The notes under the pieces: generated by a model
What the model was told of the DNA's origin: nothing
The model's database searches: none
The model's input: the letters and a program-made list of their open reading frames with translations, nothing else
Assembly (NCBI RefSeq): GCF_024298765.1
Contig: NZ_CP101210.1
Length of the DNA: 64,000 nt
Source: Escherichia coli
GTDB taxonomy: Bacteria; Pseudomonadota; Gammaproteobacteria; Enterobacterales; Enterobacteriaceae
Direction: 5' to 3' (one strand)
Translations under genes and position numbers: made by a program
Shown here: positions 26,815 to 45,649 of the stretch, piece by piece
Layout of the letters: the number at the start of each line of letters is the position of its first letter
Numbering within the stretch: position 1 is the stretch's first letter

Positions 26815-27395
26815 TGGCATTCAGAATGAGTGAACAACCACGGACCATAAAAATTTATAATCTGCTGGTCGGAACTAATGAATTTATTGGTGAAGGTGAC
26901 GCATATATTCCGCCTCATACAGGTCTGCCAGCAAACAGTACCGATATTGCACCACCAGATATTCCTGCTGGCTTTGTGGCTGTTTTCAACAGTGATGAGG
27001 CATCGTGGCATCTCGTTGAAGACCATCGGGGTAAAACGGTTTATGACGTGGCTTCCGGCGACGCGTTATTTATTTCTGAACTCGGTCCGTTACCGGAAAA
27101 TGTTACCTGGTTGTCGCCGGGAGGGGAATATCAGAAGTGGAACGGCACAGCCTGGGTGAAAGATGCAGAAGCAGAAAAACTGTTCCGGATCCGGGAGGCG
27201 GAAGAAACAAAAAACAGCCTGATGCAGGTAGCCAGTGAGCATATTGCGCCGCTTCAGGATGCTGCAGATCTGGAAATTGCAACGGAGGAAGAAACCTCGT
27301 TGCTGGAAGCCTGGAAAAAGTATCGGGTGTTGCTGAACCGTGTTGATACATCAACTGCACCGGATATTGAATGGCCAGTAGCACCTATAGGGTAA
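26814..27395 (+). CDS. tfa: Tail fibre assembly protein Tfa
   Basis: Positional immediately after stf; size 193 aa. Confidence 0.85.
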
Positions 27396-28254: not shown

Positions 28255-28316
28255 CGGTCTCGAAAACCGGAGTAGGGGCAACTCTACCGGGGGTTCAAAT
28301 CCCCCTCTCTCCGCCA
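28255..28316 (+). other. serU: Prophage attachment core: 3' 62 nt of tRNA-Ser(CGA) serU ending in CCA, no 5' half
   Basis: Sequence CGGTCTCGAAAACCGG...CCCCCTCTCTCCGCCA matches serU 3' portion as recalled; upstream sequence is not tRNA. Confidence 0.8.
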
Positions 28317-28862
28317 CTTTATCAATGACTTATCTCCTGACTTCCCGCCTTGCTTTTCCTAAACAGAACAATCGTAGAATATTCTTGAAGGGTTAGATCG
28401 TCACTGTTTTCTGTTCGATACTGTGACATTCAGCACTTGATTCGCTATGGAGCTGACAGGAAGGTTTCGAGCGAAAATCTACAGTTATTCAGTCGTTTTC
28501 TTATCGGTCACCATTATTCTTTTAGACATTGATCCTATGAAACTGCCGCAAAGTTGCTGGCGGGAACTGAAGTTGCGTAGAGAAGGGGTCAATAATTGAG
28601 TCAAAAAAGGAACGCGGCCGTCAGATTAAAGCCGCGGGACAAAGTCCATAATTTCCAAGAGTTGTTGAATTTCCCAGCTTTTTTGAAAGCCTTTGTATCA
28701 TACTAACAAGTAAAAAAGGTTTAAACACCAAAATTAACCTATATTTCTGGTTAGCTTTACCATGACAGATGACTTGCTCCTGGAAACATTTGTGCTGCCA
28801 GTCTGTATGGCTGAGTTGTGTATTTATTGTTCGCCTTTTTCGCATTTTTTTTTCTACAGACA

Positions 28863-35177: not shown

Positions 35178-35768
35178 AGTGTATTCCTTATTGTTGCTTA
35201 GTTAGGGTAGTCACTATATTTGCGACTGAGCTGGTCGCTATTTTTAACCAGTCTGGAAAATTGAGTCAATATATCGAAAGCGGTAGTCTGCGGGTGTAAG
35301 TATGTAATGATGATGCTGCACTGGTGTTGAATATTATTCACGCCAAATTTTCCTTATTGAGCAACGTCGTCGCAAGTGGCCTCAATGATTTTAGACCATT
35401 ATCAGAGATGCGGGGCGGAGGGAAGAGATTTAGTGCTGTGGAATATTGTGGTGCTGATCAATATTTATATCCCGGATTGGTAGAGAAAAAGCTTATTTCA
35501 TGCACTATTTTTGCAAATATTTCTATATGGGAGGCGTGTTTGTTGCGGATTAATACATAAAGAAATGTATTTGGAGTGTTGGCTGGAAGAGTAGCTGGTA
35601 GAGATATTGTGCCAGGAGGGGCAGGGTAAGGTGCTGTATCGATATGCTTTGGCAATTGCGTGTGCCGCAGATGGAGATGAAATGCCAATAAAAAAGCCTG
35701 AGTTCGATGAGGGACGAACTCAGGCTAGTGTTATGTTTTACAGTAACACGCCGCGGCGCGTTGGCTGA

Positions 35769-36827
35769 TTAGAACTGGTAGACGATACCAAATGCGAGTT
35801 GGTCGTCGGTGTTCAGTCCATGAGCGAGAACATAATCACTCTTATCAAGCAGGTTGATCTGATAAGCGGTATATACGTTCATGTTCTTATTGAAGTAATA
35901 CCAGGTACCGATTTCAATGTAGTTCAGACGATCAGAATCTTTGTAACCTGCTACGTCCAGTGCTTTAGAATAGGAGTAACCGATGGATGGACGCAGACCG
36001 AAGTCGAACTGATATTGCAGAACAGCTTCGAAGTTTTGTGTTTTGTTCACAACATCACCGTCGTCGGAATTCATGTTGTGAGATTCACCGTACATCACAG
36101 CAGCATAGACGTTGTTGGGATCATATTTTGTTGACAGTGCCCAAACTTCTGCTTTTTCACCTTTACTATCACTAGACTGGAAATCAGTACGGTCAGAGTT
36201 TGCGTAAGCACCAGTAAATGAGAAACCGTCAATAGTGTAAGTTACAGATAAACCATGGCCATCGCCATTTGCTTTGTAGTTGCCTGTACCTTCATTTTTA
36301 CCCTGATATTGCAGAGCAAAATTTAGACCTTCAACCATGCCAAAGAAATCTGTGTTACGATAGGTTGCAACACCGTTGGTACGGTTGGTCATGAACAGGT
36401 CAGTACCAGCCCATGAATCACCGCCCCACTCAACAAACATATCAGTAAATGCTTCTGCATCATACGCGACACCGACATTACGACCATAGTCGAATGAACC
36501 AAAATCTTTGTAACTCAAACCAGCATAAGCCAAACGAGTTTGGTCAGGGTTGTGTCTGTTTGATGCTTCCAGGTCTAGTTCAAACTGACCGTAACCAGTC
36601 AATTCAGGGTTGATCTGAGTTTCACCTTTCACGCCTACACGGGCATAAGAGGTATCTTGAGAATTATCGCCTTTTTCACCATTTTCACGGTCGGTCAGAA
36701 TGCGCTCACCAACCATCTTGCCGTACAGATCCAGTTTATTGCCATCTTTATTATAAATTTCAGCCGCATTTGCTGCGCCAGCAACTAATAACGCCGGGAC
36801 CAGCATTGCCAGAACTTTTCTTTTCAT
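35769..36827 (-). CDS. yedS: OmpC-family general porin (yedS locus), apparently intact 352 aa
   Basis: Signal peptide MKRKVLAMLVPALLVAGAANA; C-terminal F; porin motifs. Confidence 0.85.
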   Translation of the reverse strand: MKRKVLAMLVPALLVAGAANAAEIYNKDGNKLDLYGKMVGERILTDRENGEKGDNSQDTSYARVGVKGETQINPELTGYGQFELDLEASNRHNPDQTRLAYAGLSYKDFGSFDYGRNVGVAYDAEAFTDMFVEWGGDSWAGTDLFMTNRTNGVATYRNTDFFGMVEGLNFALQYQGKNEGTGNYKANGDGHGLSVTYTIDGFSFTGAYANSDRTDFQSSDSKGEKAEVWALSTKYDPNNVYAAVMYGESHNMNSDDGDVVNKTQNFEAVLQYQFDFGLRPSIGYSYSKALDVAGYKDSDRLNYIEIGTWYYFNKNMNVYTAYQINLLDKSDYVLAHGLNTDDQLAFGIVYQF

Positions 36828-37135
36828 TATGTATTCCCTTGTGATTATAATCTTCATGAATATATCAATAAGTGCCGTTATCCAAAAAAAGCACATTTGG
36901 ATACTATTCTATGAAGTTCATTTTATTTTAAAGATTACATGCAACAAATATATTTAAAAGATTTCAAAATGTTTCTAATCTATTTAATATAATTCAGAAT
37001 TATGAATTCTAAACATAAGTATTCATGAAAATTATCAATTCATATCAATATATTATGAGTTTAGCGGAAAGATAGGGGGTATCAATGATTGATGCGCTAA
37101 ACGGCTGGTGTGATCACGCGCACATTAATGAAGGC

Positions 37136-37235
37136 ATAAAAAAGCCGGCATCATGCCGGCCCAAAAAATATAAACAAGACGATAAAAGGCTAATAACGGA
37201 GGCATCATGACACAGAAAAATAAAAAGGTATAATT
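37136..37235 (-). ncRNA. Candidate small RNA in yedS-yedR intergenic region (possibly RseX)
   Basis: Minus-strand hairpin GCCGGCATGATGCCGGC followed by TTTTT; CCUCC anti-SD-like stretch upstream; RseX location recalled, sequence not verified. Confidence 0.3.
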
Positions 37236-37558
37236 GTATTCAGTGCTAATATATTGATTAAATGAATTAATAAAGCCGATATCAAAGATAAATAAAATCG
37301 CTCAAAACGATTTTTCCTGTATTCACTGCCGTTGCGCAAAATTTATCTATTTTTTCAAAAAATGATTGAGTCTTGACTGGCTCATTCAATGTGGAAAAAT
37401 GTGACTTTTATCACATAATAGTACTAAGTCTGAATTTTCCGGGTTATCTCAAAATGGAATACGGTTCGACAAAGATGGAAGAGAGGCTCTCTCGCAGCCC
37501 TGGTGGCAAACTGGCTTTGTGAGCTTTCTATACATGGTGTGGCTATTTCGTCTGGGCA

Positions 37559-37756
37559 ATGGCGCGTTACATCTGGGTGATGAGCCGGATCCCCGATGCC
37601 CCCGTGTCGGGATTTGAAAGCGATTTAGGCTCTACCGCGGGAAAGTGGTTAGGGGCACTGGTCGGATTTTTATTTATGGCTCTGGTCGGGGCATTGTTAG
37701 GCAGCATTGCCTGGTACACCCGACCTCGTCCCGCACGTAGCAGACGCTATGAATAA
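37559..37756 (+). CDS. yedR: Small inner-membrane protein (yedR-like)
   Basis: Hydrophobic helix GALVGFLFMALVGALLGSIAWY; K-12 position; start site uncertain. Confidence 0.6.
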   Translation: MARYIWVMSRIPDAPVSGFESDLGSTAGKWLGALVGFLFMALVGALLGSIAWYTRPRPARSRRYE

Positions 37757-42857: not shown

Positions 42858-45382
<2,525 letters not shown>

Positions 45383-45562: not shown

Positions 45563-45649
45563 AACACATCAGATTTCCTGGTGTAACGAATTTTTTAAGT
45601 GCTTCTTGCTTAAGCAAGTTTCATCCCGACCCCCTCAGGGTCGGGATTT
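45563..45649 (+). ncRNA. dsrA: DsrA small regulatory RNA
   Basis: Sequence AACACATCAGATTTCCTGGTGTAACG...CCCGACCCCCTCAGGGTCGGGATTT matches DsrA as recalled, including terminator. Confidence 0.9.

Follow-up and report, generated by a model that had tools for sequence, protein, structure and literature searches.

The yedS slot of the E. coli DNA analysed here, a stretch of 64,000 nucleotides called the window below, contains an intact allele that is probably functional, a reading to which a probability of roughly 85% is attached. The slot is equated by some authors with that of Salmonella ompS1. The gene looks functional because its pore-lining residues are conserved, because dN/dS between alleles of its own type is 0.13–0.19 and because the predicted fold matches that of OmpK35. 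The protein itself is already known and the finding is to that extent ordinary, since the exact sequence is in RefSeq, in a cluster of 2,356 members, and active yedS has been tied to carbapenem resistance since 2013. The modestly novel remainder is a two-lineage, cassette-like polymorphism at the locus, of which no description was found in the literature searched; this is weak evidence for novelty.

Coding sequence and start site

The gene is a single open reading frame on the minus strand, 352 aa plus stop in 1059 nt, reading from an ATG at 36827..36825 to a TAA at 35771..35769 and ending in GIVYQF. The program-made list of open reading frames gave a longer version of 375 aa from an upstream ATG at 36896. 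The start at MKRKV is the correct one, because an AGGGA Shine-Dalgarno sequence lies 8–12 nt upstream of it, because RefSeq annotates it in a genome with 100% identity here and because the starts of OmpF, OmpC and OmpK35 align with it. The genome in question is E. coli AR_452, whose locus is identical in DNA sequence over its whole length and carries the RefSeq protein WP_000824345.1, annotated as ‘porin’. Equating the whole window with AR_452 was rejected, the identity holding only from 28255 onward. The protein cluster that is 100% identical to the window protein (P0001) is the one with 2356 member sequences. The features of the gene are as follows.

35769..36827, minus strand: CDS of the porin in the yedS slot, 352 aa + TAA (open reading frame; Porin_1; RefSeq WP_000824345.1 in AR_452)
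36765..36827, minus strand: signal-peptide segment of 21 aa, MKRKVLAMLVPALLVAGAANA, with predicted cleavage before AEIYNK (alignment to OmpF, OmpC and OmpK35)
35695..35726, minus strand: intrinsic terminator, a 12-bp stem with 7 GC pairs, then TTTTTATT (terminator scan)

The terminator lies 43 nt past the stop codon and the K-12 sequence is identical there. An earlier sequence-only reading of this DNA had described an uninterrupted 352-aa porin gene with a signal peptide and a C-terminal Phe, and had named an internal frameshift as what would overturn that description. No frameshift or stop interrupts the frame; it is a single one, with the porin family profile matching along its full length, and both ends are as described (MKRKVLAMLVPALLVAGAANA/AEIYNK at the start and YQF at the finish). 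By alignment with the OmpF/OmpC cleavage site the protein has a cleavable Sec signal peptide, and its C-terminal Phe is typical of porins assembled by BAM. The signal peptide is 100% identical in alignments of all E. coli yedS allele classes.

Protein family and predicted pore

The Pfam profile PF00267 (Porin_1) matches residues 27–352 over all 337 of its positions (1–337) with 366.9 bits (cut-off 23.7) and an E-value of 1.6e-109; the reading frame is therefore far beyond chance. The window protein fails every NCBIfam porin equivalog and subfamily cut-off. Its best NCBIfam match, to the OmpF equivalog NF007446, reaches 413.9 bits yet stays below the cut-off of 583; the PhoE equivalog NF007544 gives 407.3 bits, under 599, and the OmpC subfamily NF007841 gives 390.9 bits, under 484. 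The label ‘OmpC-family’ given to the protein in the sequence-only reading is hence right at the level of Pfam Porin_1 and wrong at that of the OmpC subfamily, the best matches being OmpF in NCBIfam and OmpK35 among solved structures. The nearest of these is OmpK35 9hn1 (E 5e-131, full length).

An AlphaFold (AF2) model was made from an alignment of 30 sequences. With a pLDDT of 75.7 and a pTM of 0.75, it shows the signal peptide as an N-terminal helix, 16 strands and a helical L3 consisting of two short helices. Foldseek superposed it on OmpK35 (5o77) with TM scores of 0.83/0.86 and on OmpF with about 0.82. The predicted fold is that of a general porin, an antiparallel beta-barrel of 16 strands whose loop L3 is folded into the lumen.

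36426..36443, minus strand: L3 motif VEWGGD, codons 129–134, coordinates approximate (alignment, OmpF numbering)

Numbered as in OmpF, the eyelet residues K16, R42, R82, R132, D113 and E117 are all conserved, as are G119, G120 and D121 of L3. The motif VEWGGD is a variant of PEFGGD in which P116 is replaced by V and F118 by W, as in OmpK35. Replacement of Y102 by V at the eyelet was seen only in the window allele among the sequences compared. Judged from these residues, the eyelet is a complete one of OmpF type, with D113 and E117 of L3 opposite the basic cluster K16/R42/R82/R132.

The yedS slot and K-12 yedS

The window gene lies between hchA and rseX-drpB-yedJ-dcm, with flanks homologous to those of K-12, and is thus the positional ortholog of b4496; the order in MG1655 is dcm-yedJ-drpB-rseX-[yedS]-hchA-hprS. 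The small RNA gene rseX is on the same strand as yedS, directly upstream of its regulatory region, with a terminator at 37162-37142, an arrangement found also in K-12.

37137..37226, minus strand: rseX small RNA (Rfam RF01401, 96.9 bits, gathering score 50)
35778..36725, minus strand: allele-specific body, codons ~36-346 (sharp divergence from K-12)

The sequence-only reading took K-12 yedS for a disrupted pseudogene and named an intact K-12 gene as fatal to the contrast. K-12 yedS is indeed disrupted. In MG1655 the gene (b4496, formerly b1964-b1966) is annotated as a pseudogene, and it is broken into three open reading frame pieces by a TAG (amber) that stands at codon 162 in place of the CAG of O157 and, after it, by a frameshift. 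The alignment proposed as a check puts these lesions in K-12 and none in the window copy.

A DNA alignment divides the gene sharply. The upstream region is 96.3% identical to K-12, the first 35 codons 96.2%, and the last 18 nt with the 3' flank 94.4%, whereas the intervening ~950 nt are 64.3% identical with 164 gap columns. Once its lesions are conceptually repaired, K-12 YedS has 397 aa and is 60% identical to the window protein. The K-12-type protein is 72% identical to OmpN and 68% to OmpC, passes the NCBIfam OmpC subfamily cut-off (541.6 > 484), has PEFGGD in L3 and has long surface loops. By identity (64% nt, 60% aa) and by its place in another clade of the neighbour-joining tree, the coding body is not orthologous to that of K-12 yedS. 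The claim that yedS is intact here thus stands as to slot and integrity, but the window gene is no counterpart of the K-12 pseudogene; it belongs to a distinct lineage.

The neighbour-joining (NJ) tree places the window type with two other E. coli alleles, one of 357 aa (SCU-113) and one of 371 aa (VCSW8, UTI89), and with OmpK35/OmpF-like porins of Klebsiella oxytoca, Enterobacter hormaechei, Citrobacter and E. fergusonii. The nearest proteins outside E. coli are 69% identical to the window protein. A porin occupies the slot vsr-dcm-yedJ-(drpB)-porin in E. hormaechei, K. oxytoca and Citrobacter. In E. fergusonii it follows vsr-yedJ-drpB, no dcm gene being called, and the interval from drpB to hchA contains a tandem pair of porin genes; the second has a signal peptide of NmpC/OmpD type and is 63% identical to K-12-type YedS. 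The E. albertii slot is occupied by the K-12 type. Each of these sister species is represented here by one lineage, E. fergusonii the OmpK35/OmpF-like and E. albertii the OmpN/OmpS1-like.

Upstream region

The sequence-only reading had also pointed to a long AT-rich region in front of the gene, and this was confirmed. The 309 bp from the 3' end of rseX to the ATG have a GC content of 27.8%, and the proximal 173 bp one of 22.5%, against ~49% in the surrounding chromosome.

36828..36975, minus strand: conserved proximal promoter/5'UTR block of 148 nt, with the AGGGA Shine-Dalgarno sequence at 36835-36839 (cross-species alignment)
36962..36972, minus strand: candidate OmpR half-site ACATTTTGAAA, an 11-mer identical to the ompC C1 box core
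36976..37136, no strand assigned: distal AT-rich region from the rseX terminator to the conserved block (GC 23-36% in 200-bp windows)
37109..37124, no strand assigned: CRP-type palindrome TGTGATCACGCGCACA (pattern match)

The proximal 148 nt are nearly invariant in both E. coli lineages, E. albertii and E. fergusonii, and the distal part diverges. Near-invariance of this block suggests a constrained promoter and 5'UTR. The 11-mer ACATTTTGAAA recurs in the K-12 ompC promoter, inside TTTACATTTTGAAACATCTA; as some 11-mer was shared in 5.9% of shuffles, the candidate OmpR half-site is a suggestive lead of weak significance. At the K-12 site homologous to the CRP-type palindrome (2033766), Footprint-seq showed binding of CRP in vitro, and the site was attributed to yedS (PMC12871828). 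Sigma-70-like hexamers were in no excess upstream (8 sites, 7.3 expected from shuffles), and the H-NS high-affinity motif TCGATAAATT was not enriched and had no copy upstream of yedS.

A paper by Warner et al. (2013, Antimicrob Agents Chemother 57:1935) is said to deal with control of YedS by MicF. Pairing of small RNAs with the translation-initiation region only was assessed with ViennaRNA duplex energies relative to 500 dinucleotide shuffles. MicF nucleotides 1-33 gave E = -7.7 and z = +1.3 with yedS -40..+30, and RseX showed no pairing with the yedS initiation region (z = +1.2). The positive controls, ompF for MicF (E = -27.1, z = -4.7) and ompC for RseX (z = -3.3), both scored while yedS stayed at chance. 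Control of yedS by either RNA through its initiation region is therefore unsupported.

Reports from related systems bear on expression. H-NS/StpA is reported to silence the neighbouring rseX (PMC8313858), the mRNA of K-12 yedS (called ompS1 there) drops upon sigma-E induction like that of other porins (PMC2731931), and Salmonella ompS1 is a quiescent porin gene silenced by H-NS/StpA and de-repressed by LeuO, which acts against H-NS (PMC4264507).

Allele families and their prevalence

Approximate counts come from 5,426 complete E. coli genomes, searched by megablast with cores specific to each allele. The 901-bp core of the window type was found at at least 95% identity in ~1,165 of the 5,426 (~21%), 1,142 of them at a coverage of at least 80%, and UPEC 536 is included. 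The 357-aa type occurs in ~740 genomes and the related 371-aa type in ~600 more; the K-12/OmpS1-like family is present in ~1,660, at 83-100% identity, and the locus was unmatched in ~390.

Intact yedS is the rule in E. coli and K-12 the exception, most of the sampled copies being intact. Of the K-12 type, the alleles sampled (94, 89, 86 and 83.5% identity) each encode an intact protein of 393-404 aa, and intact K-12-type proteins of 395-397 aa are plentiful in the protein database. The four window-type alleles compared are each intact, with exactly 1059 nt, and ~2% of window-type cores are truncated. Broken copies comprise those of K-12, O157:H7 (a frameshift), strains with IS3 insertions and a deletion that takes hchA too. 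The intact copy in the window is accordingly real; as a peculiarity of this strain it does not survive, since intact alleles are the norm.

The locus is highly polymorphic, with at least four allele families. These share promoter, 5'UTR, signal peptide and terminator and differ in the mature protein, most of all in the surface loops, which are 25-37% identical between families as compared with 64-77% for barrel and turns. Such loop divergence is the pattern that would be expected of surface-exposed receptor or antigen regions. Mosaic proteins were also found (P0008 and P0015). Within E. coli the window type has itself diversified, with a dS of ~0.09 and two sub-clusters. Pairwise dN/dS among the four window-type alleles is 0.13-0.19 at that dS, which indicates purifying selection.

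Origin of the two lineages

The sharp breakpoints in the conserved end codons suggest that homologous exchange swapped porin bodies in and out of a regulatory socket that stayed fixed. The socket would comprise the conserved promoter, 5'UTR, signal peptide and terminator, with exchange inside the first ~35 and last ~6 codons. Our tentative interpretation, put forward at distinctly less than even confidence, is a long-lived polymorphism of two lineages that share this one socket, an OmpK35/OmpF-like lineage (352/357/371 aa) and an OmpN/OmpS1-like one (393-404 aa). The locus would then be a cassette-like, balanced switch of antigen or phage receptor and not a decaying pseudogene locus.

An account that is on balance unlikely is that the window-type body is a foreign cassette, recombined from another enterobacterial genus in place of a native OmpS1/OmpN-like yedS. 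The coding sequence has 43% GC where its neighbourhood has 49%, identity to K-12 breaks sharply inside the conserved ends of the gene (35 codons at the start, 6 at the finish), the body shares a clade with same-slot porins of Klebsiella, Enterobacter, Citrobacter and E. fergusonii, and the mosaics P0008 and P0015 suggest recombination among allele types. However, with the nearest proteins outside E. coli at 69% identity no recent donor has been identified, and the type has itself diversified inside E. coli (dS ~0.09, two sub-clusters). Moreover, the clade of the window type sits in the slot of several genera and could equally be ancestral, with the K-12 type as the newcomer.

It is improbable that the intact reading frame is a silent relic, unexpressed, drifting towards a pseudogene and without phenotype. 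A relic would be in keeping with the AT-richness of the upstream DNA, the reported silencing of neighbouring rseX by H-NS/StpA and repeated inactivation of the locus in some lineages (K-12, O157, IS3 insertions, deletions), as well as with the detection of antibodies to a YedS antigen in only 1 of 141 healthy humans on the array of one study (PMC11242715). It is difficult to reconcile with the dN/dS of 0.13-0.19, the conservation of every eyelet residue, the integrity of four out of four window-type alleles with truncation in ~2% of cores, and the retention of the regulatory block across species. The link of active yedS to carbapenem resistance, as given in passages of PMC4048246 and PMC11267920, also counts against it.

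Differential deletion from an ancestral tandem porin pair is very unlikely as the source of both lineages with identical flanks. The two tandem genes of E. fergusonii provide a precedent, and deletion through the conserved 5' or 3' codons would leave the same flanks around a different body, but the second E. fergusonii gene, of NmpC/OmpD type and 63% identical to K-12-type YedS, is not of that lineage, and the tandem origin was rejected on this ground. Scarcely credible at all is the simplest idea, that the window gene is the un-mutated ancestor of the K-12 pseudogene, minus amber codon and frameshift: it accounts for the common slot and for promoter, 5'UTR, signal peptide, last codons and terminator being ~96% identical, but is refuted by alignments of the body (64% DNA with 164 gap columns, 60% protein, 352 vs 397 aa), by the OmpC-subfamily, OmpN-like nature of the K-12 type as against a window type below that cut-off and grouped with OmpK35-like porins, and by the true intact K-12-type proteins of 393-404 aa in other strains.

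Proposed role and implications

The YedS product would be a trimeric, non-specific channel for small hydrophilic solutes, including beta-lactams and carbapenems. It is probably expressed at a low or conditional level, as suggested by the AT-rich upstream DNA, the H-NS/StpA silencing of rseX and the quiescence of Salmonella ompS1. Its weight would be greatest once OmpC and OmpF had been lost, and the diversity of its surface loops probably stems from selection by phage, colicin or antibody.

The ‘yedS pseudogene’ of K-12 is a poor guide to the species, as the porin in the slot is mostly intact and its lineage may differ. Models of porin loss in carbapenem and cephalosporin resistance usually take in OmpC and OmpF only; an additional OmpF/OmpK35-like channel could sustain drug entry or be a further target for loss. 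The names assigned by PGAP, ‘OmpC’ for K-type alleles and plain ‘porin’ for the others, can confuse pipelines that call resistance genotypes. Divergent surface loops among the allele families could alter recognition by phage, colicin and antibody.

Comparison with known systems

K-12 b4496 occupies the same slot as the window gene, from rseX/drpB to hchA, and is ~96% identical to it in promoter, 5'UTR, signal peptide, terminator and final codons. OmpF, OmpC, PhoE and OmpN of E. coli agree with the window protein in Pfam family, fold, signal peptide and the chemistry of the eyelet, but they are 55-58% identical to it, lie at other loci and have NCBIfam cut-offs that it misses.

The YedS of clinical E. 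coli described by Warner in 2013 comes from the same locus and is an intact, non-K-12 yedS, linked there to carbapenem entry and resistance; passages of PMC4048246 and PMC11267920 that cite this work name inactivation of marR combined with an active yedS porin gene as a mode of carbapenem resistance. The clinical YedS of 2013 may belong to another allele family, and its phenotype may not carry over to the window allele. Outer-membrane proteomics of STEC reported a ‘putative porin with 50% homology to K-12 YedS’ (PMC9731836). This is possibly a YedS protein of non-K-12 type; taking it for the window allele was rejected, K4Y655 being a fragment that is not tied to that allele.

Salmonella ompS1 is most likely, by analogy, the closest regulatory counterpart of yedS. 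The two have been equated (PMC2731931) and both have low-GC upstream DNA. OmpS1 differs in resembling the K-12-type lineage, judged by source names (‘outer membrane protein S1’), and not the window type.

The OmpK35 of Klebsiella pneumoniae (9hn1, 5o77) is alike in protein, with 61% identity, the motifs GKMVGE and VEWGGD, the same eyelet residues and TM scores of 0.83-0.86. K-12 ompF sits between aspC and asnS, not at the yedS locus, and OmpK35 is presumably the product of the ompF ortholog at the asnS-aspC locus. It differs from the window protein in its loops, which are 33% identical, and in position, the window gene lying in the yedS slot.

The pore eyelet and related porins

approx. 36503-36505, the position of OmpF Y102 in the window porin (precursor codon 108)

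Among the 10 porins compared, the window allele of yedS was the only one with valine at the eyelet position that is tyrosine Y102 in OmpF, OmpC and OmpK35. This substitution could alter the size or the polarity of the pore.

Two rare E. coli porins, P0008 (352 aa) and P0015 (353 aa), fall between the allele families. P0008 shares 85% identity with the window type and 81% with the 357-aa type, another intact family from the yedS slot; for P0015 the figures are 78% with the window type and 72% with the NmpC-like porin of E. fergusonii. Both proteins look like recombinant mosaics. In E. fergusonii itself (locus L027, 4001-8688) a second porin and a TrkH-family gene are inserted in the interval from the yedS-slot porin to hchA; this second porin has 369 aa and a signal peptide of the NmpC/OmpD type.

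Small RNAs and neighbouring genes

37109-37124, CRP-type palindrome
37137-37226, - strand, rseX small RNA gene
37475-37756, + strand, drpB (yedR), cell-division gene
42858-44552, + strand, dgcQ (yedQ), diguanylate cyclase regulating cellulose, with an internal stop
45563-45649, + strand, DsrA small RNA (Rfam match)

The palindrome and rseX adjoin the regulatory region of yedS on its upstream side. Pairing of RseX with ompC was good in silico (z = -3.3), and the same kind of prediction gave no good match between RseX and the adjoining yedS. DsrA is in its usual location beside yedP and rcsA.

Codon 16 of drpB, which adjoins rseX, is an in-frame TGA (37520-37522) where K-12 has Trp, and an internal Met restarts an ORF of 65 aa. 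The annotation of AR_452, a strain identical to the window over the yedS locus, also flags drpB with an internal stop. The internal stop in dgcQ is at codon 312, and the AR_452 annotation lists this gene as a pseudogene.

The prophage at the start of the window

1-28317, late arm of a lambdoid prophage (first ~28 kb)
1130-1439, tRNA cluster Met-Lys-Thr-Gly, inside the late arm
27157-27355, + strand, IS009 (Rfam match, 226 bits), close to the prophage end
28255-28317, 3' fragment of tRNA-Ser, the prophage end

The late-arm genes include those for the Q antiterminator, terminase, portal, major head and tape measure proteins, the J-type central fibre and a side tail fibre of 1135 aa. From 28255 onward the window and AR_452 are 99.986% identical, whereas in place of the prophage AR_452 carries an intact tRNA-Ser, mtfA, tRNA-Asn and the yersiniabactin island.
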